Below, piece after piece: positions 896 to 22,131 of a DNA stretch of 64,000 nucleotides. The translations under genes and the position numbers were made by a program. Every line of letters begins with the position of its first letter. Positions within the stretch are counted from its first letter, which is position 1. This stretch comes from Escherichia virus TH54. The notes under the pieces were generated by a model, which worked only from the letters and a program-made list of their open reading frames with translations, was not told the origin of the DNA and did no database searches. Location of the stretch: the sequence record MT446420.1. One strand, given 5' to 3'.

Positions 896-920
896 AAAAA
901 AGGGCCGTATGGCCCTTAGA
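896..920. terminator. intrinsic terminator hairpin GGGCCgtatGGCCC, A-run upstream and T's downstream
   Basis: perfect 5-bp GC stem with 4-nt loop; reads as hairpin plus U-tract on the minus strand. Confidence 0.5.
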
Positions 921-1111: not shown

Positions 1112-2122
1112 TTATCGATAATAGGAATTGTGGTTGTCAAGATATACCTCCTCAACAAACTTGTCCCAGAACTTCATGTCCACCTTCGCAGGCATACCAT
1201 TCTTAGCAGCCCAGATGGCATTAGTTTCGACTTCATCAACGATAGCTTCAAGTTCAGCCTGTACATCTTTAAAAGCATGTAACCCTTGTTTGATTTCAAG
1301 GATAAACGGTGCTGTTCGTAAAGGATATTGAAGGTCACCGGTCATATAAATTTCCTTCAGCTGATATCCAGCTCGATAAGCATGACTCAATGCTTTCCAG
1401 TCAATACCTTCATTCGCTTCGGCCTTACGAGCACGTTCACCATATTCGGCATCAAGTTTATTCAGAGATTGCTTGAGCTCGATTAAAGACAGAGTAGTTT
1501 GGTATTTACGACCGAGGACAGTATAGAACGTTTGAGGACCTGTTTTCTCATGGTTATGAAATACCCATTCACAGAACTCGTTTTCAGGGAGCCGGTGCTT
1601 AATATCTTCTACCTTAGTACGTCGTTGCTTAGTAGAACCATCTTCTTGATAATCGACCCATTGTTCAGGAATCTGGTTAACGATTTCCAATACACCACGC
1701 AGTGCAGCCAATCGAGAACCTTTAACACCATATTTGGAAGCTTGCTTGCGGACATACCCCAAATAGGCTTTCATGTTGGTTGTATAGAACCGCGAACGGT
1801 TATCCTGAATAAACTTCCATACATCTGGTAAATCGGATTTGACAACCAGGTCAGCCGGCGTGTGAATCATGTCCAGAGCAACGGTTTCGCCTTCGGCCGC
1901 CAGTTTAAAGAAATATTTCAGACTATAAAGTTCATGGTCAACATCATCTTTTGTATTTTTGGTAGCCGTGTTATTCGTGTTCAGGTTGGTATGGTTCATC
2001 GCCGTCCCAAGTAGAATATCACGAGGATGTGGAACAAAGATTTCTTTAAAATCGACATCAGATTCTGGGGTACTTGTTCCATAAAGGTGGCTACCGAAGT
2101 AGCCTTTCATAATAGTTTTCAT
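1112..2122 (-). CDS. nucleotidyltransferase-fold protein (Pol-beta superfamily motif GS-x10-SDVDF)
   Basis: 336 aa from MKTIMKGYFGSHLYGTSTPESDVDF; GAGGA SD; 4-nt overlap with upstream gene. Confidence 0.6.
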   Translation of the reverse strand: MKTIMKGYFGSHLYGTSTPESDVDFKEIFVPHPRDILLGTAMNHTNLNTNNTATKNTKDDVDHELYSLKYFFKLAAEGETVALDMIHTPADLVVKSDLPDVWKFIQDNRSRFYTTNMKAYLGYVRKQASKYGVKGSRLAALRGVLEIVNQIPEQWVDYQEDGSTKQRRTKVEDIKHRLPENEFCEWVFHNHEKTGPQTFYTVLGRKYQTTLSLIELKQSLNKLDAEYGERARKAEANEGIDWKALSHAYRAGYQLKEIYMTGDLQYPLRTAPFILEIKQGLHAFKDVQAELEAIVDEVETNAIWAAKNGMPAKVDMKFWDKFVEEVYLDNHNSYYR

Positions 2123-2571
2123 TCTTTGTCCTCGAAGTGGATTACTGGGCACATCTTAAATTTACGAGCTTTAATATATTGAATGAAAACATTTTCTTTA
2201 ATTTCCTTTCCTTCACGTTTAGCTTTAATGCGTTCCCATTCTTTTTCTTCTTTACGTAAATCGTACCAGGCCCATAAATTCATTATACAATATACAATAC
2301 CGACGGCTACCGCTAGAATAAGAGCCAGTGTAACCAGTCCTAAAATAAAACCTAAACTTAAGCCAACAGGAGTACTCAATACAAAGAACTGCTCCAATAT
2401 ACCAGCACCTGCAACAGTTAAGCCGAAAATAGTACTACCTGCAAGCACAGAACACATAAAGCACACCCAAACCATTTTCCAGAAGTATGCGCATAATGAG
2501 CGTGGACGTGAATAACTGGCATAAAAACGGTCGTGTAATTTAACGTGCCAAGAGTTTGAATTGATAATCAT
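2119..2571 (-). CDS. predicted membrane protein, about 3 TM helices
   Basis: 150-aa ORF with long hydrophobic stretches (VWVCFMCSVLAGSTIFGLTVAGAGIL; LGFILGLVTLALILAVAVGIVY); AAGGAAA SD. Confidence 0.5.
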   Translation of the reverse strand: MIINSNSWHVKLHDRFYASYSRPRSLCAYFWKMVWVCFMCSVLAGSTIFGLTVAGAGILEQFFVLSTPVGLSLGFILGLVTLALILAVAVGIVYCIMNLWAWYDLRKEEKEWERIKAKREGKEIKENVFIQYIKARKFKMCPVIHFEDKE

Positions 2572-2581
2572 AATATTTTCC

Positions 2582-3142
2582 TTAAGAGTTCATAGTTGGG
2601 ATAACAGAGTTCAGATAAGAGACTAAAACTTTTAGCTCGTCTTTAGTAAATACCACTTCACTTTCGCCGTCATGTCTTTGGACAATGGACAACAAGTCAC
2701 GGCCGTTATGTTGATGCACAGTCAGTTCAGTATTATAATCTAATTCCTCTTCATCGCCTTCAAACGTTTCGCTAGAGCGAATCAGTGCGTCTTGTCCTGG
2801 GACTTTCCATTCAACTTCTGGTTTACATTCTTCCTGGAACAGTTTGAAAATACAATCAAAGAATTTATCAGAATCGCTGATGCTCAGACATTCAATACCA
2901 TTTTCTAAATTAAACCCGTTTTCGTTTTTATAGATATAGGCATACATATCATCATTGATATCAACAGGAGCACTAGCACGACCATTAAGATAATCGTGTC
3001 TATCCAAAACCATTAAATCATAAAGCGGTTTAATATCAGCGATAGTCAGTACGATTTTATCGTCTTCTTGACAAAGCTCAATTGCGTTATTAACTACTTC
3101 AGCGGTCAGTTCGCCAAACAATTCAGTTGTTTCAATAATCAT
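2582..3142 (-). CDS. hypothetical acidic protein
   Basis: 186-aa ORF in a tightly packed minus-strand gene run. Confidence 0.45.
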   Translation of the reverse strand: MIIETTELFGELTAEVVNNAIELCQEDDKIVLTIADIKPLYDLMVLDRHDYLNGRASAPVDINDDMYAYIYKNENGFNLENGIECLSISDSDKFFDCIFKLFQEECKPEVEWKVPGQDALIRSSETFEGDEEELDYNTELTVHQHNGRDLLSIVQRHDGESEVVFTKDELKVLVSYLNSVIPTMNS

Positions 3143-3152
3143 TTTCTGTTCC

Positions 3153-3368
3153 TCAACGGTTATGTTTTAAAATACTATAAAGTGCTTCTACTTGGCTTGC
3201 ATCCAGGTAAATAACATCATCATCTTGCTCAATGGAAATCCCACCAGTATTACCTTTAACAAAATTACATTCGCACACTTCAACCGGGCGGTATACGTCA
3301 CCAACTGGATGCTCAGGCTCCAGAACAATCACACCATTTTCAGAATTACCACTTGGGTCATATAACAT
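3153..3368 (-). CDS. hypothetical small protein
   Basis: ORF with internal ATG at 3368 preceded by GAGGAA; track start is TTG. Confidence 0.35.
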   Translation of the reverse strand: MLYDPSGNSENGVIVLEPEHPVGDVYRPVEVCECNFVKGNTGGISIEQDDDVIYLDASQVEALYSILKHNR

Positions 3369-3459
3369 TACAGTTTCCTCGCTAACCATGAAAAGAATAA
3401 ACCAATTAAAACAGGCCCTATAGCCATTGTTAACCAAGCCCAAGGTTCAAGATAGTAAA

Positions 3460-3717
3460 TCATCTCATGCTCCTGTGCCAACAATTTCTTGGTTCACGTT
3501 TAAAAATTTCATCATGCATTGATTGACAACCAACACAATATATCACACCCCTAATCGCTTGTCTCCGCGCTTCAGGAATTTTTTCATCGCAGTCAAAACA
3601 GAATTCAGCAGACTCCCTTTCAACTGCAACCTGTGCTCTCGCATGGGTGATAGCGGCTTGTACAACCGCTTCCATCTCTAACTGTTCAGCACCATCTTTT
3701 GCAAATCCAACAGCCAT
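3460..3717 (-). CDS. DksA/TraR-type C4 zinc-finger protein
   Basis: 85 aa with CFDC-x17-CVGC spacing typical of the TraR/DksA zinc ribbon. Confidence 0.5.
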   Translation of the reverse strand: MAVGFAKDGAEQLEMEAVVQAAITHARAQVAVERESAEFCFDCDEKIPEARRQAIRGVIYCVGCQSMHDEIFKREPRNCWHRSMR

Positions 3718-3899
3718 TATTCTTTCAACCCATTCAGATAAGCAATTAATTCTTCTTTAGAACTATTCAAATCACGCTTGCACTGTTCTATTCCAGAATA
3801 TGAATAACCTTCACATAATTCAACAGCCAGGTCATTGGATGCGTTTTCAATGTGCCAAGCAAGTTTGATAATTTTTTCAATCTGTTCAGTAGTTAACAT
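3717..3899 (-). CDS. small helical protein, member of tandem MITLEQA/MLTTEQ paralog triplet
   Basis: 60 aa, MLTTEQIEKIIKL N-terminus; similar to two upstream neighbours. Confidence 0.45.
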   Translation of the reverse strand: MLTTEQIEKIIKLAWHIENASNDLAVELCEGYSYSGIEQCKRDLNSSKEELIAYLNGLKE

Positions 3900-4093
3900 T
3901 ATGCAGTCCTGTAATCAATAATTTCGTCAAGGAACATATCCAATGCTTCCAGAGCATTGTCAACCTTTGCTTCTAATTCTTCACCACCACCAAGCGATGG
4001 GGACCAATACGCAAAGTCATTTAGTGTTTCATCTGCTTCGCGAATCGCTTTTACCAATGCTTTAATTCTATCAGCTTGTTCTAAAGTAATCAT
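3899..4093 (-). CDS. small helical protein, tandem paralog
   Basis: 64 aa, MITLEQADRIKAL; start region DNA nearly identical to the 4278 copy. Confidence 0.45.
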   Translation of the reverse strand: MITLEQADRIKALVKAIREADETLNDFAYWSPSLGGGEELEAKVDNALEALDMFLDEIIDYRTA

Positions 4094-4278
4094 TATTCCA
4101 CCAATGATTCAATGAAGGTATCAAGAGCTGCTTTAGCTTCATCCATTTGTTCTTCACACCGATTTCTGGTGTAATAATCAGATAAATCAGATTCAGATAC
4201 TACAGTAAAGAATCGGACTTCTTTCTTGTAGTTGGCGATAAGTTCTTTAAGTTTTTGAGCTTGTTCTAAAGTAATCAT
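4093..4278 (-). CDS. small helical protein, tandem paralog
   Basis: 61 aa from internal Met MITLEQAQKLKEL; about 30-bp identical DNA repeat at its start. Confidence 0.45.
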   Translation of the reverse strand: MITLEQAQKLKELIANYKKEVRFFTVVSESDLSDYYTRNRCEEQMDEAKAALDTFIESLVE

Positions 4279-4481
4279 TATTCCACCACATATGATAATG
4301 AGAAAATTGCTGATGAAAGATGAGTAGCATCTTCTTCGCACAGTTCAAATGGAGCTTTCTGTAAGAGTTCAACAACTTCTTCATCAGTGGCACTGTCCAT
4401 AAAGATTGCATAATCATTAAGATAGATAACAACCTCATCACCAGTATTAACTGCATCAATCTTGATATTTTTAATTCTCAT
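4278..4481 (-). CDS. hypothetical small acidic protein
   Basis: 67-aa ORF directly downstream of an early promoter cassette. Confidence 0.45.
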   Translation of the reverse strand: MRIKNIKIDAVNTGDEVVIYLNDYAIFMDSATDEEVVELLQKAPFELCEEDATHLSSAIFSLSYVVE

Positions 4482-4483
4482 TG

Positions 4484-4540
4484 TATTCTCCTCAGTAGTT
4501 GATGGGATAATAGTACACCCTTTTTATGAGGATGTAAACC
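4484..4540 (-). promoter_or_regulatory. early promoter (-35 GTTTAC, -10 TACTAT) with GGGATA inverted repeat
   Basis: minus-strand GTTTAC-N18-TACTATTAT immediately upstream of GGAG and ATG at 4481. Confidence 0.5.
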
Positions 4541-4547
4541 CCTAAAT

Positions 4548-4582
4548 GAAAAAAGGTCCACCCGAAGGCAGACCTTTTGAAT
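4548..4582. terminator. bidirectional intrinsic terminator hairpin
   Basis: AAAAAA-GGTCCacccgaaggcaGACC-TTTT; sits after the stop of ORF 4582-4965. Confidence 0.5.
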
Positions 4583-4965
4583 TACTCTAGTGTTAACAGA
4601 TACTTAGTCTGAAAGAAAACTCCAACGATATCGTCCAGAGTCGATTGAATAGCCTTAGGTACAACTTTATAGACTCTTTCCGAGCTTTTAATCATTTCAT
4701 CTAAAAACAAAATTGTATCTTTCGGCAAGTCCGAGGCGGACGGTAATGCAGCTTTGTATTGTTTCCCGCTGTAACCTAACCATTGCTCACTGAACTGGTC
4801 GAGTGGACCTTGGATTTCTGTGAAGTAGAAATCATAAGCTTTATGGCGGGCGTAACTTTTGGTTTCAAGATGGGCGGACTTAAAATAAGCCAAAGAGACT
4901 AACAACCACCCAATATATGAATCCACCTCAGACCCACGACCCGTTACGAAATCATCAAATTTCAT
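4582..4965 (-). CDS. hypothetical protein (rI.-1 position)
   Basis: 127-aa ORF immediately downstream of rI-like gene; followed by terminator. Confidence 0.45.
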   Translation of the reverse strand: MKFDDFVTGRGSEVDSYIGWLLVSLAYFKSAHLETKSYARHKAYDFYFTEIQGPLDQFSEQWLGYSGKQYKAALPSASDLPKDTILFLDEMIKSSERVYKVVPKAIQSTLDDIVGVFFQTKYLLTLE

Positions 4966-5272
4966 CTTCCAATTTTACCTTCATTAATTTAGCGTATTCG
5001 ACTGCAGCAGCACGGCCATCAATTTGACATGTGATTTCATTTACACATTGGCTCTTATTGTTCCATTCAGTTTTAATAAAAGCCCAAAATTGTTCGGACT
5101 GCTCGACGCTGGGTTCTTTGAATTGCGAATAGATTTGCATCGCACTATCTGCATACTGGGTAAATTTACCATCTGTAGCAGAGGACATATTTGGGCCTAA
5201 ACAGCCCATTAGTAATAGACTTAGAGAAAGTCCTCGAATAAGGTCCATAAAGGACTCCTTATTGTTGGTCAT
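4955..5272 (-). CDS. rI: lysis-inhibition regulator rI-like protein
   Basis: N-terminal hydrophobic signal/anchor; C-terminus ...AAAVEYAKLMKVKLEDEI resembles T4 RI ...AEMAQSYARIMNIKLETE; lies next to tk as in T4. Confidence 0.6.
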   Translation of the reverse strand: MTNNKESFMDLIRGLSLSLLLMGCLGPNMSSATDGKFTQYADSAMQIYSQFKEPSVEQSEQFWAFIKTEWNNKSQCVNEITCQIDGRAAAVEYAKLMKVKLEDEI

Positions 5273-5319
5273 GATTACGCTTTGCAGCCTTAACATAGCG
5301 GAATACTAGTTAGTAACTG

Positions 5320-5327
5320 TATTTATA
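5320..5327 (-). promoter_or_regulatory. late promoter TATAAATA on minus strand upstream of rI
   Basis: exact TATAAATA about 50 nt upstream of the rI ATG. Confidence 0.4.
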
Positions 5328-5598
5328 ATCTTTTAAACTTGAAACAATATATTGCAAATAAATCAGAAAAATGGCTATCAACCCATATTCTTTGCACTGG
5401 ACTAGTAACAGTCAGCATATAATGTGCTTTTTGTAAATTTATTCCATTTTTATTCGGACATTCTTTATTAACAGAATGGTACGTGCTTGCTACTATTTCA
5501 ATTTCCCTTTCATATCTCTCGCTATCTGTTTGTGTGGGGATAAATGCAATTCCAGCAATAACAAAAATAGAGATATACGTCCAAATCTTATATATCAT
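5323..5598 (-). CDS. small membrane protein
   Basis: 91 aa with one N-terminal TM helix (ISIFVIAGIAFIPT). Confidence 0.4.
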   Translation of the reverse strand: MIYKIWTYISIFVIAGIAFIPTQTDSERYEREIEIVASTYHSVNKECPNKNGINLQKAHYMLTVTSPVQRIWVDSHFSDLFAIYCFKFKRL

Positions 5599-5605
5599 AA
5601 GGACC

Positions 5606-6178
5606 TCAGCTTGTCAATTCGAGCCAATGTTTCCTGCATAAAGATACGTACGATTCATTCCCACCGACCAATACTTGCTCGCCGTCCTTTACAGCAGCAC
5701 CGTCGATTACTCGAGCGGTCATGGTTGCTTTCCGGCCGCAATGGCAGACGCCCTTTAATTCAACCAGTTTATCCGAAATAGCCAGAAGTCTGGCTGAACC
5801 GGGAAATAACTGACCCCGAAAATCTGTTCTTAGCCCGTAACACATAACGGGGATATTGTAATTATCAACCACTCGTGCTAACTGGTCAATTTGCTCTGGC
5901 AACAAAAATTGAGCTTCATCGACCAGGACACAATGGATGTCCTTTTGAGACTCGGCCCATTTATAGAATTCAAACAGGTTCATGTCGGCCGTTACCAGGT
6001 TTGCTTCCTGGCTAATACCAATACGTGATTTAATTTCAGATTCCGAGTCCCGATTATCAATAACAGGCTTTAGCAAAAGCACACTCATTCCACGCTCTTT
6101 ATAGGAATAAGCGGCAGTCAGCAATGAAGCTGTTTTGCCTGCATTCATTGCTGCGTAATGATAAATTAAACTCGCCAT
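5606..6178 (-). CDS. tk: thymidine kinase
   Basis: 190 aa; P-loop AAMNAGKTASLL, VDEAQF and CHCGRKA zinc motif; near-colinear with T4 Tk. Confidence 0.9.
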   Translation of the reverse strand: MASLIYHYAAMNAGKTASLLTAAYSYKERGMSVLLLKPVIDNRDSESEIKSRIGISQEANLVTADMNLFEFYKWAESQKDIHCVLVDEAQFLLPEQIDQLARVVDNYNIPVMCYGLRTDFRGQLFPGSARLLAISDKLVELKGVCHCGRKATMTARVIDGAAVKDGEQVLVGGNESYVSLCRKHWLELTS

Positions 6179-6187
6179 ATCACCTTC

Positions 6188-6373
6188 TTAAAGCGTATTC
6201 ACATAAGCTATTAATTCGTTTTCTTTCTCATCAAATCGATTAGCAAATTCTTCCAGATGGTCGGCATCTATCGGGCCATATTCATCATAAAAGGCGTTTG
6301 CTTCCGTATGCTCGTCCAAAAGCTCATGGATAAGCTCAAACAATCTACTTTTCTGACTAATACTTAAACTCAT
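6188..6373 (-). CDS. hypothetical small acidic protein
   Basis: 61-aa ORF, overlaps next gene start. Confidence 0.4.
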   Translation of the reverse strand: MSLSISQKSRLFELIHELLDEHTEANAFYDEYGPIDADHLEEFANRFDEKENELIAYVNTL

Positions 6374-6576
6374 TTCAGTTCACCATATCGTACAAATTCA
6401 GGGTGTTCACAATCACCAGAATGGAGACCTTCACCTTCATGGTTAGGACATCCTTTATTAGAACAGTACCACCAGTAATCAAATCCACATTCCATTTCAT
6501 CGTTGCATAAAACTGCGATTACTGGCCATTCGCATTTTTCACATTTGGCCGTTTTAAGAATTCGGGCTTGGCTCAT
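6370..6576 (-). CDS. Cys-rich small protein, probable zinc ribbon
   Basis: 68 aa with CxxC...C...C...CxxC...C pattern. Confidence 0.45.
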   Translation of the reverse strand: MSQARILKTAKCEKCEWPVIAVLCNDEMECGFDYWWYCSNKGCPNHEGEGLHSGDCEHPEFVRYGELK

Positions 6577-7027
6577 AATCCACCACTATTAAATCAATAT
6601 CAGGAGTAAACATGTCGATTAATTTAGAAACCTTATCCCAATCGCCGCCAGCAATACCACAACCAATACGAGGAATATAAATTACCGGTTTAAACAAAAG
6701 GGTTTCTGCCTGTAGATTTAATTCTATCATACAATTTACTAAAGCGCCATAATCAAGATTAGGGCCCGGTTCATATTGGGTGTACAAATTATAACACATA
6801 CCAAACCCAGTAGGCTTATGTTTAAAAACAATAGACATATCACCGAGTTTTTCTCTGGAACCATATTCAGTAGTGGTTTTATCTATTTCTAAAACTTTTG
6901 GATAAGCCTTCGCCAACTGTCCAGCTACGCCAGAACCCATTGTGTGAAAGCAGTTGCAACCATGTGCAATAATATTGCCTTGAAGAAAGAGGGCGACAAT
7001 ATCGCCCTTAATATACTGGGTAATCAT
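6554..7027 (-). CDS. macro-domain protein (ADP-ribose-binding/processing fold)
   Basis: 157 aa; GDIV..GNIIAHGCNCF..MGSGVAGQ and later IGCGIAGGDW resemble macro-domain glycine-rich motifs. Confidence 0.5.
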   Translation of the reverse strand: MITQYIKGDIVALFLQGNIIAHGCNCFHTMGSGVAGQLAKAYPKVLEIDKTTTEYGSREKLGDMSIVFKHKPTGFGMCYNLYTQYEPGPNLDYGALVNCMIELNLQAETLLFKPVIYIPRIGCGIAGGDWDKVSKLIDMFTPDIDLIVVDYEPSPNS

Positions 7028-21978: not shown

Positions 21979-22055
21979 TGGTCGGGGTGGTGGGATTCTA
22001 ACCCACAACCTACGGTTTAGAAGACCGTTGCTCTATACAATTGAGCTACACCCCG
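21979..22055 (-). tRNA. tRNA-Arg (anticodon UCU)
   Basis: hand-folded cloverleaf: acceptor CGGGGTG/CACCCCG, D arm GCTC/GAGC, anticodon loop CTTCTAA, T arm GTGGG/CCCAC, 3' ACCA; ends +/- 2 nt. Confidence 0.8.
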
Positions 22056-22057
22056 GG

Positions 22058-22131
22058 TGGCCCCATCCGGACTTGAACCGGAAACCTGCCAGTTATGAGC
22101 CGGATGCTCTAACCAATTGAGCTACAGGGCC
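22058..22131 (-). tRNA. tRNA with CAU anticodon, probably tRNA-Ile (AUA-decoding) rather than Met
   Basis: acceptor GGCCCTG/TGGGGCC with two G-U pairs, anticodon loop CTCATAA, T arm TCCGG/CCGGA; no encoded CCA. Confidence 0.7.

Follow-up and report, generated by a model that had tools for sequence, protein, structure and literature searches.

The RlaP family of nucleotidyltransferases was named by Burroughs and Aravind in 2016 (cited here through PMC12776372 and PMC7824862), and a 2025 preprint lists NrdC.11 of bacteriophage T4 among its members (PF10127, SSN cluster 5) (PMC12776372). According to the same preprint, the Pseudomonas RlaPs add one or two NMPs to the 3'-OH of RNA, prefer Mn2+, use neither DNA nor protein as a substrate, favour the end of a broken anticodon loop, and partly restore the aminoacylation of a tRNA lacking one nucleotide; in the crystal structure of PfRlaP an N-terminal NTase domain is followed by a C-terminal helical domain, whose final helix packs against the NTase (PMC12776372). 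The relevant phage background concerns the host anticodon nuclease RloC, which excises the wobble nucleotide and whose discoverers argued that it could defeat the T4 repair (PMC2610378), and the observation that T4 is viable on a laboratory host after loss of the nrdC.11-mobD.3 segment (PMC9825161). That viability fits an accessory counter-defence role, but is no positive evidence for it. Already known are thus the gene name, the RlaP assignment (2016) and the likely chemistry (2025 preprint); the new support provided by the present analysis is the RNA-repair operon context of the full-length cellular homologs of NrdC.11.

The window analyzed in this work is a stretch of 64,000 nucleotides from Escherichia virus TH54 (MT446420.1). 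The ORF at positions 1112..2122 of the minus strand encodes a 336-aa predicted RlaP-family (PF10127) Pol-beta nucleotidyltransferase and is the ortholog of phage T4 nrdC.11, an already catalogued gene, as judged from the ORF and its translation, Pfam and PHROG searches, sequence identity and an AF2 model. T4 NrdC.11 (NP_049709, gene T4p095) is of equal length and 82% identical over all 336 residues. Such a close match to a T4 gene had been named by the sequence-only reading as an argument against its own proposals if the gene encoded a characterised housekeeping enzyme; the match is close and the T4 gene has a name, but it has not been characterised experimentally. JS98/VR7-type orthologs (JS98 and phage 212 among them) are 96-99% identical to NrdC.11 of TH54, orthologs in JS98, VR7, SP18, RB51, ime09 and RB49 carry the annotation nrdC.11, and a tblastn search reported homologs in 1516 phage records. 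Many database records of NrdC.11 are labeled "thioredoxin", which is an annotation error.

The Pfam search matched PF10127 (RlaP) with 42.4 bits (gathering score 23, E-value 8.6e-11) over residues 6-133, i.e. in the N-terminal half of NrdC.11 only, and PHROG 388 ("nucleotidyltransferase") was matched with an E-value of 1.9e-132. The hhalign comparison of the NrdC.11 profile with a set of 12 canonical RlaPs confirmed the relationship (probability 94.8%, E-value 5e-8). Searches of the PDB with the NrdC.11 sequence and profile returned no relevant match, and Foldseek reported only weak, generic NTase matches among the PDB structures.

The translation opens with MKTIMKGYFGSHLYGTSTPESDVDF and contains the motif G10-S11-x10-D22-V-D24, so that the Pol-beta signature GS-x10-D-x-D proposed from the sequence alone for this ORF is confirmed. 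The codons of this motif, i.e. the nucleotide-binding GS and the first two catalytic aspartates predicted from conservation among 133 homologs, occupy positions 2051..2095 (minus strand). In this set of NrdC.11 homologs (33-82% identity) no substitution occurs at G10, S21, D22 or D24, and S11, D60, D62 and D84 are each conserved in at least 90% of the sequences. The predicted third catalytic carboxylate is D62 (codon at 1937..1939, minus strand), which pairs in the profile-profile alignment with the invariant D72, the third Asp of canonical RlaP, and which the AF2 model places on the β-strand 61-67. D84 was also considered for this role and dropped, as the profile alignment favours D62. The loss of catalytic carboxylates, which would have spoken against an enzymatic function, was not seen, since D22, D24 and D62 are conserved, and NrdC.11 is predicted with confidence to be a nucleotidyltransferase of the Pol-beta fold with an intact set of catalytic residues.

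The AF2 model (based on the 133-sequence alignment, pLDDT 94.8) comprises an NTase domain, a helical domain and a long C-terminal helix (residues 316-335). The helical domain expected from the sequence is therefore present, but the C-terminal ~230 residues are not helical throughout, since a β-rich insertion lies within this domain (about residues 154-208, codons at 1499..1663 of the minus strand, delimited from the AF2 secondary structure). This insertion is typical of the NrdC.11 clade; it is missing from NrdC.11 of RB49, a 232-aa protein without about residues 131-240, a region that the bacterial Pnkp-linked homologs retain.

We regard the ATG at 2122 as the true start of nrdC.11, because all homologs open with MKT/MR-T and because a GAGGA Shine-Dalgarno sequence is found at 2129..2133 (minus strand), within the 3' end of the neighbouring membrane-protein gene (the sequence 5' of the ATG reads ...CGAGGACAAAGAATG). 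A longer ORF starting from the GTG at 2152 was rejected as an artefact, as every homolog uses the ATG. Both genes lie on the minus strand, a detail absent from the earlier description of the locus. A terminator-like hairpin at 900..917 (minus strand; 7-bp stem, 5 of its pairs being GC, and then TTTTTGTTT) is located 3' of nrdC.11 and of the small ORF that follows it; a convergent gene on the plus strand, with its end at 893, also stops just short of this hairpin.

In T4 and TH54 alike, nrdC.11 lies between mobD.1 on the upstream side and the nrdC.x genes on the downstream side, within the early nrdC-tk block. The two phages differ in the gene directly upstream of nrdC.11, which encodes the homing endonuclease MobD in T4 and a membrane protein in TH54; moreover, TH54 lacks the nrdC.10 gene of T4 and has a plus-strand gene for a tail-needle-knob protein downstream. 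The membrane-protein gene (2119..2571, minus strand) encodes 150 aa, matches PHROG 944 (E-value 2.7e-52) and belongs to the JS98 ORF092c / RB69 ORF104c / RB32 ORF096c family, with homologs in 931 phage records (tblastn). The PHROG E-values and the 1516 and 931 phage records indicate that nrdC.11 and the membrane gene are real, far beyond chance. A Kyte-Doolittle scan identified three hydrophobic stretches (residues 26-44, 47-66 and 67-103), of which the last could accommodate one or two helices; the conserved motifs are SWH, LCxYFW and YIKARKxKxCPxIEF, and Pfam reported only sub-threshold matches (Oleosin and others).

The sequence-only reading had noted a 4-nt overlap of the enzyme gene with the upstream gene for a predicted three-helix membrane protein and had described the two as coupled. 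The overlap is indeed present (ATGA at 2119..2122, minus strand, in which the TGA stop of the membrane gene shares its nucleotides with the start of nrdC.11), and so are the three hydrophobic segments. The coupling is not supported, as the adjacency is limited to some Tevenvirinae and overlapping genes are commonplace here: 6 of the 12 junctions between 1112 and 6178 overlap, which deprives the 4-nt overlap of any special meaning. T4, RB49, PTP25 (KP15-type), phiAS5 (Aeromonas), Cr30 (Caulobacter) and Vibrio phage 11895-B1 encode the enzyme but lack the membrane gene; in M198, Cronus and Maestro 1-5 ORFs separate the two genes, and in some phages the intervening elements are unrelated ORFs or a terminator. 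phiR1-37 possesses the membrane gene, but the ±3 kb examined around it contain no NTase gene, and among 47 genes located upstream of cellular homologs just 2 encode a multi-pass membrane protein. The membrane protein is thus most likely a syntenic neighbour and not a partner, and the overlap a matter of local gene packing. As a more remote possibility, the SWH...CP membrane protein could recruit or regulate NrdC.11 where the genes are translationally coupled, i.e. in some Tevenvirinae.

Specific functional clues came from the genomic neighborhood of the cellular homologs. Among 78 loci encoding full-length homologs (33-50% identity, neighbours within 5 kb), RNA-repair genes were found in that range at 28 and none at the remaining 50. 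The gene for canonical RlaP is located immediately downstream at 16 of the 78 loci, and the other associated genes encode the Pnkp kinase-phosphatase-ligase (7 loci), Hen1 (6), RtcB (6) and Ro60 (3). An Asticcacaulis locus (L072) contains hen1, pnkp, the nrdC.11-like gene and rlaP in consecutive order, with start/stop overlaps. These operon contexts provide direct comparative support for a role of the NrdC.11 subfamily in RNA repair, and they suggest that the canonical enzyme could not simply take its place. Of the functions entertained by the sequence-only reading, the modification of tRNA or other RNA is thereby favoured, being backed by the PF10127 membership, the biochemistry of the bacterial RlaPs (PMC12776372) and the cellular operon context.

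On these grounds we propose, with fair though by no means full confidence, that NrdC.11 is an RNA-repair nucleotidyltransferase that restores nucleotides at broken tRNA ends during infection. The enzyme would transfer one or two NMPs from NTPs, independently of a template, to the 3'-OH of damaged RNA, with two metal ions presumably held by D22, D24 and D62, and its main substrate may be tRNA halves generated by cleavage of the anticodon loop. NrdC.11 would in this way complement the T4-type tRNA repair, i.e. the polynucleotide kinase-phosphatase PseT and RNA ligase 1: a nucleotide excised by cut-and-trim host anticodon nucleases (e.g. RloC) would be put back, and the subsequent ligation could then yield a usable tRNA. 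Addition to RNA 3' ends has been reported by others for bacterial RlaPs only, and it is by analogy with them that we infer the RlaP-type addition of 1-2 nt and the repair role for the phage protein. VR7, a close relative of TH54, encodes pseT and rnlA. In T4-like phages these two genes are unlinked to nrdC.11 (~85 kb away), and NrdC.11, PseT and RnlA occur in near-identical counts per host genus; this agreement is weak evidence, because each of the three is part of the conserved genome backbone of the Straboviridae. Nearly all T4-like phages encode NrdC.11. If it rebuilds specifically the excised wobble position, it could be the phage counter-measure against RloC-type anticodon nucleases that has been looked for since 2008, and phage survival of tRNA-trimming nucleases through NrdC.11, if demonstrated, would complete the story of PrrC, PseT and Rnl1.

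Several other functions may be considered for a protein of this fold. A minor but appreciable probability attaches to a general role in the tailing of RNA 3' ends or in the maintenance of tRNA acceptor ends (e.g. of a damaged CCA), with other host or phage RNAs also serving as substrates, whose function would be restored or altered by the addition. When supplied with total RNA, bacterial RlaPs label species the size of rRNA as well as full-length tRNA, and any RNA with a 3'-OH is accepted, but of the two ends of one tRNA mimic they favour that of the broken loop over that of the acceptor stem (PMC12776372). Genomic context can likewise be read in both directions: the ligase and kinase genes are unlinked to nrdC.11 in T4-like phages, and in Vibrio phage 11895-B1 a gene for tRNA (CCA) nucleotidyltransferase is followed by a 154-aa ORF (no Pfam match) and then by the NrdC.11 homolog, placing the latter one ORF past a CCA-adding enzyme, an arrangement also in line with the RNA-repair proposal, whereas the cellular homologs are tied to Pnkp/Hen1 and RtcB ligase systems, which act on internal breaks. 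We find it unlikely that NrdC.11 nucleotidylylates an acceptor other than RNA (a protein or small molecule) in the manner of aminoglycoside nucleotidyltransferases or of MNT-type antitoxins, which AMPylate a partner. Its structural neighbours do include kanamycin, lincosamide and ANT(4') nucleotidyltransferases and MNT/HEPN complexes, and there are sub-threshold matches to the NTP_transf_2 and MntA models; however, these scores are far below the cutoffs (PF01909: 14.2 bits vs 21; MntA of NCBIfam: 13.4 vs 60), NrdC.11 is three times the size of MNT with no HEPN gene adjacent, the cellular context is that of RNA repair and not of toxin-antitoxin systems or antibiotic resistance, and E. coli proteins are not substrates of the bacterial RlaPs (PMC12776372).

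The pairing of a nucleotidyltransferase with a membrane protein recalls the defence system Hailong. In Hailong, described in 2025, HalB makes oligo-dA that gates the channel HalA, which is toxic alone. NrdC.11 could by analogy synthesize an oligonucleotide that controls the neighbouring membrane protein, or it could keep a HalA channel of the host closed, but we consider either version very improbable. The structural match to HalB (PDB 9dbh/9dbj; 13% identity over 139 of 336 residues) covers only the generic NTase core and is little better than that to 3c18 or to kanamycin nucleotidyltransferase, the profile of 133 homologs did not detect HalB among the PDB sequences at E-value ≤1, and the membrane protein found no HalA at E-value ≤10. 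The obligate pairing of NTase and membrane protein does not apply either, as the genes occur separately across phages, and bacterial RlaPs use no DNA acceptors (PMC12776372). PADLOC reported no match for NrdC.11, but its release dates from 2023 and precedes the description of Hailong, so that this result probably does not test the relationship. Least probable of all, and in our view barely tenable, is that NrdC.11 makes or intercepts a nucleotide second messenger, cyclic or linear, by a cGAS/DncV-like or anti-CBASS activity. Besides the shared Pol-beta fold, the one argument in favour is the single case of Caulobacter phage Cr30, whose homolog is directly followed by a gene for an Acb3-type CBASS inhibitor; however, no CD-NTase/SMODS match was found in Pfam and none in PADLOC, no CD-NTase is present among the fold-search matches listed, and no effector or sensor genes recur near the cellular homologs. 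The synthesis or antagonism of a nucleotide signal, which the sequence-only reading had also considered, accordingly finds no backing in any model match, be it cGAS/DncV-like, CCA-adding or from a defence system.

Class II CCA-adding enzymes and poly(A) polymerases (PF01743) resemble the proposed RNA-repair nucleotidyltransferase in that they have the Pol-beta fold and extend RNA 3' ends without a template. NrdC.11 differs from them in the lack of a PF01743 match (E-value ≤0.1), of an NCBIfam match and of the head-neck-body-tail architecture, and Vibrio phage 11895-B1 encodes a separate, true CCA enzyme two genes upstream of its NrdC.11 homolog. The relationship to canonical RlaP is much closer: both types belong to one Pfam family above the gathering score, share the GS...DxD...D active site and, judging by the AF2 model of NrdC.11, appear to combine an N-terminal NTase domain with a C-terminal helical domain, and RNA ligase genes adjoin cellular members of both types alike. 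However, the two can be aligned only over the first ~120 residues, the C-terminal halves do not align, and NrdC.11 is ~85 residues longer and contains the β-rich insertion. In the published network NrdC.11 falls into cluster 5, whereas the assayed Pseudomonas RlaPs belong to cluster 1a, and T4-like phages encode the NrdC.11 type alone, while canonical RlaP was found in 80 records, mainly of jumbo phages. The diverged C-terminal half of NrdC.11 probably binds the substrate. That the different C-terminal half and the insertion make the NrdC.11 clade a distinct enzyme with its own substrate or nucleotide specificity is a rather doubtful proposition at present. The frequent tandem arrangement of the two types in bacteria implies that they are non-redundant and possibly differ in activity, and their side-by-side position in bacterial operons identifies them as paralogs with probably distinct roles. 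Specifically, the tandems in the Hen1-Pnkp and RtcB operons suggest that NrdC.11 and canonical RlaP restore nucleotides in two steps or as a heteromeric enzyme.

The nrdC.11 ortholog occupies positions 1112-2122 of the minus strand and encodes a 336-aa protein beginning MKTIMKGYFGSHLYGTSTPESDVDF, in which the GS-x10-D-x-D nucleotidyltransferase (NTase) signature proposed by the sequence-only reading was confirmed by translation as G10-S11, followed after ten residues by D22-x-D24. The ATG start codon at 2122 is preceded by GAGGA at 2129-2133; a longer ORF starting at GTG (2152) was rejected, as this start is used by no homolog. Directly upstream on the same strand lies a 150-aa membrane-protein ORF (2119-2571), whose TGA stop codon shares ATGA with the start of the enzyme gene. 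Both ORFs of the previously suggested pair are real; the enzyme matches PHROG 388 (E-value 1.9e-132) and the membrane protein PHROG 944 (E-value 2.7e-52), the phage records matched by tblastn number 1516 for the enzyme and 931 for the membrane protein, and both are genuine, widely conserved genes. Residues 6-133 of the enzyme match PF10127 (RlaP, "RNA repair pathway DNA polymerase beta family") with 42.4 bits against a gathering score of 23, and its membership in the NrdC.11/RlaP family is practically certain.

The first 6.2 kb of the window exhibit 91-95% nucleotide identity to JS98/VR7/SP18-type T4-like coliphages, and the enzyme is 82% identical to T4 NrdC.11 and 96-99% identical to its counterparts in JS98 and phage 212. 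The order annotated in VR7 in the direction of transcription is tk, rI, mobD.7, mobD.5, mobD.4, mobD.3, mobD.1, ORF102c (the membrane protein), nrdC.11, and that of T4 is mobD.1, mobD (a homing endonuclease), nrdC.11, nrdC.10. Gene order and identity therefore identify the enzyme as the ortholog of T4 NrdC.11, a gene already named and annotated as NrdC.11/RlaP. Many GenBank and UniRef records of NrdC.11 orthologs are labeled "thioredoxin" (one is labeled "HNH homing endonuclease"); the protein contains no thioredoxin domain, and the label is probably an error propagated from the nrdC gene prefix.

Further upstream on the minus strand are genes for a MobD.1/y05I-like putative transcription factor (2582-3142; PF24449 and PF24448) and an 85-aa protein (3460-3717), in which a CxxC...CxxC motif like that of DksA/TraR zinc fingers was recognized by eye via a related annotation in Klebsiella phage M198. 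The early region, otherwise on the minus strand, has one plus-strand gene (147-893) located between nrdC and nrdC.11. Its 248-aa product combines a short collagen-like Gly-X-Y run (GPPGPKGEPGVPGPKGDPGGDG) with a tail-needle-knob domain of the Sf6 type at the C terminus (PF16532, E-value 2.9e-32; PHROG 1030); the gene is annotated as "tail needle knob" in some close relatives and absent from VR7. This gene converges on the minus-strand genes at a shared terminator-like hairpin (900-917), where a small basic minus-strand ORF (916-1158; up to 80 aa, non-ATG start, containing ...KVFLSYGRPHKGRRWYLEAVCRETGRR...) also stops. The latter has an annotated counterpart in VR7 (VR7ORF100c, 86% identity) and overlaps nrdC.11 at the 3' end of that gene. 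Across the 64-kb window, ARAGORN identified no tRNA genes other than tRNA-Arg(TCT) and tRNA-Met(CAT), which directly abut at 21979-22131 on the minus strand.

Among 1.84 billion representative proteins, searched exhaustively, 3070 relatives were found (E-value <=1e-3), of which 133 with 33-82% identity were aligned for the analysis of conservation. G10, S21, D22, D24, Y131, H247, R250 and P267 are invariant in this alignment, while S11, D60, D62 and D84 reach a conservation of at least 90%. The profile-profile comparison with 12 canonical RlaPs, the other type of PF10127 protein (probability 94.8%, E-value 5e-8, first ~120 columns), aligned D62 with their invariant third aspartate. Because the catalytic carboxylates, whose possible loss had been raised earlier, are kept, the enzyme looks catalytically active at the sequence level. 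In the structure model built from a deep alignment (pLDDT 94.8), the C-terminal domain previously described as helical is so in part, but it also contains a confidently modeled β-rich insertion (residues ~154-208). Foldseek reported weak matches to generic NTases, and a search of predicted viral structures revealed many nucleotidyltransferases of phages and giant viruses that share the fold. The RB49-type NrdC.11 (L009 2501-3199) comprises only 232 aa and lacks residues ~131-240 of the window protein, i.e. two helices and the β-rich insertion; this naturally occurring minimal form nevertheless retains the PF10127 match.

Other NTase classes named initially for comparison (CCA-adding, MNT or cGAS/DncV-like) obtained no above-threshold model match: CCA-adding and poly(A) polymerase models (Pfam, NCBIfam), CD-NTase models (Pfam, PADLOC) and the PADLOC defence models did not match the enzyme, and its matches to MNT and MntA were far under threshold. 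Burroughs and Aravind chose the name RlaP because the family is linked to RNA ligase genes, according to the account in PMC12776372. In this December 2025 preprint, two Pseudomonas RlaPs added one or two NMPs to the RNA 3'-OH (DNA and protein were not substrates), favoured Mn2+ and, in a tRNA mimic, the end at the broken anticodon loop, and partially rescued aminoacylation of tRNA missing one nucleotide. The RlaP crystal structure consists of an NTase and a helical domain, and T4 NrdC.11 is explicitly included in the family; in the network it falls into cluster 5, as opposed to cluster 1a for the tested enzymes (PMC12776372). A comparative study of jumbo phages predicted the same RNA-repair function, the distribution of RlaP following that of RNA ligases (PMC7824862). 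The family and likely function of the enzyme are thus already covered by the literature.

The cellular context newly supports, on comparative grounds, a role of the NrdC.11 subfamily in RNA repair. When one genome of each prokaryotic species was scanned, 80 loci with full-length homologs (33-50% identity) were obtained, in 78 of which the NTase ORF was identified, and neighbours were classified by clustering and Pfam scans. RNA-repair genes were found within 5 kb of the homolog in 28 of the 78: a canonical full-length RlaP (E-value 9e-75 to PF10127) as the next same-strand gene downstream in 16 loci, a Pnkp kinase-phosphatase-ligase in 7, Hen1 in 6, RtcB in 6 and Ro60/TROVE in 3. In Asticcacaulis (L072), hen1 (1088-2485), pnkp (2338-5004), the nrdC.11-like gene (5001-5984) and rlaP (5981-6802) run with start/stop overlaps. 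The bacterial homologs at Pnkp-linked loci match the phage protein in their entire architecture, insertion included. The tandem of NrdC.11-type NTase and canonical RlaP also occurs in cellular loci L020, L025, L045, L051, L061, L062, L073, L088 and L089; stop and start codons of such pairs often overlap, and some follow hen1-pnkp or sit near rtcB and Ro60. The tandem arrangement implies that the two types are not redundant, and suggests distinct roles or a heteromer. Together with the divergent C-terminal half, it suggests that the NrdC.11 clade may have an activity related, but not identical, to that of canonical RlaP. T4-like phages have the NrdC.11 type only; canonical RlaP was found in 80 phage records, mostly of jumbo phages and none of Escherichia phages.

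The biological grounds for such repair are well established: T4 Pnkp and Rnl1 reverse the PrrC cleavage of tRNA-Lys. RloC, in addition, removes the wobble nucleotide, and the discoverers of RloC argued that Pnkp/Rnl1 repair would be defeated by this excision (PMC2610378); adding back one nucleotide is a logical counter, and an enzyme restoring it has been proposed as such (PMC12776372). VR7, a close relative whose NrdC.11 is 97% identical to the window enzyme, has pseT (polynucleotide kinase-phosphatase) and rnlA (RNA ligase 1) ~85 kb from nrdC.11. The counts of NrdC.11, PseT and RnlA are nearly equal by host genus (Escherichia phages 608, 632 and 636; Klebsiella 286, 286 and 287; Shigella 83, 83 and 83; Aeromonas 75, 77 and 77; Acinetobacter 69, 70 and 69), which is compatible with a joint function, but weakly so, since all three belong to the conserved Straboviridae backbone. 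The nrdC.11-mobD.3 segment is dispensable in T4 on a laboratory host (PMC9825161), as expected for an accessory counter-defence gene. In its most probable role, which we favour with some reserve, the enzyme would extend damaged RNA 3' ends by one or two nucleotides in a template-independent manner and thereby support phage tRNA repair.

In Vibrio phage 11895-B1 (L010 1-3421), one ORF (154 aa, no Pfam match) separates a tRNA nucleotidyltransferase gene from the downstream NrdC.11 homolog; the former is annotated as two joined pieces that enclose a second CDS, which may reflect an intron or intein containing a nested gene. In Caulobacter phage Cr30, an Acb3-type CBASS inhibitor (L008 3497-4297; PF25187, E-value 1.8e-68) lies directly downstream of the homolog, which indicates an anti-defence neighbourhood there.

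The membrane protein has three hydrophobic segments (residues 26-44, 47-66 and 67-103) and is a member of a real family, with conserved motifs at the N terminus (SWH), ahead of the first hydrophobic segment (LCxYFW) and at the C terminus (YIKARKxKxCPxIEF). Its gene adjoins nrdC.11 directly in VR7 and Shf125875 (RB69-type) and with an 8-nt gap in ECO07P2 (Tequatrovirus); the tequatroviruses RB14 and RB51 carry the homolog RB32ORF096c, annotated beside nrdC.11 in RB51. It lies three ORFs upstream in Klebsiella phage M198, five small ORFs upstream in Erwinia phage Cronus, and upstream past one ORF and an annotated terminator in Acinetobacter phage Maestro. It is absent from T4 (slot taken by mobD), RB49 (vs.6 upstream of nrdC.11), PTP25 (KP15-type; ProQ-C-like protein upstream), phiAS5, Cr30 and Vibrio 11895-B1. 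The unrelated Yersinia jumbo phage phiR1-37 encodes a homolog with all conserved motifs (L011 3001-3501) between the genes for an RNA polymerase beta subunit and a DNA ligase, with no NTase gene within 3 kb on either side; the family therefore exists independently outside T4-like phages. Among 47 same-strand upstream neighbours of cellular homologs, only 2 have at least two hydrophobic segments. Overlaps occur at 6 of 12 junctions of consecutive minus-strand genes in 1112-6178 and at about 13 of 30 in the VR7 block, hence the ATGA overlap is ordinary gene packing. Thus, the gene pair and its overlap stand, but the functional coupling read into them is unsupported, as the linkage is inconsistent among phages and overlaps are routine.

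The analogy to Hailong, which combines the HalB NTase with the HalA channel (PMC13434031), was tested because HalB is the top structural match to the enzyme model. This match spans only the generic NTase core, with 13% identity; the 133-homolog profile searched against the PDB gave no link to HalB (E-value <=1), and no sequence link leads from the membrane protein to HalA (E-value <=10). The membrane gene is missing from several of the enzyme-bearing phages named above, which an obligate pair of the Hailong kind would not tolerate; it stands beside nrdC.11 as a syntenic neighbour.
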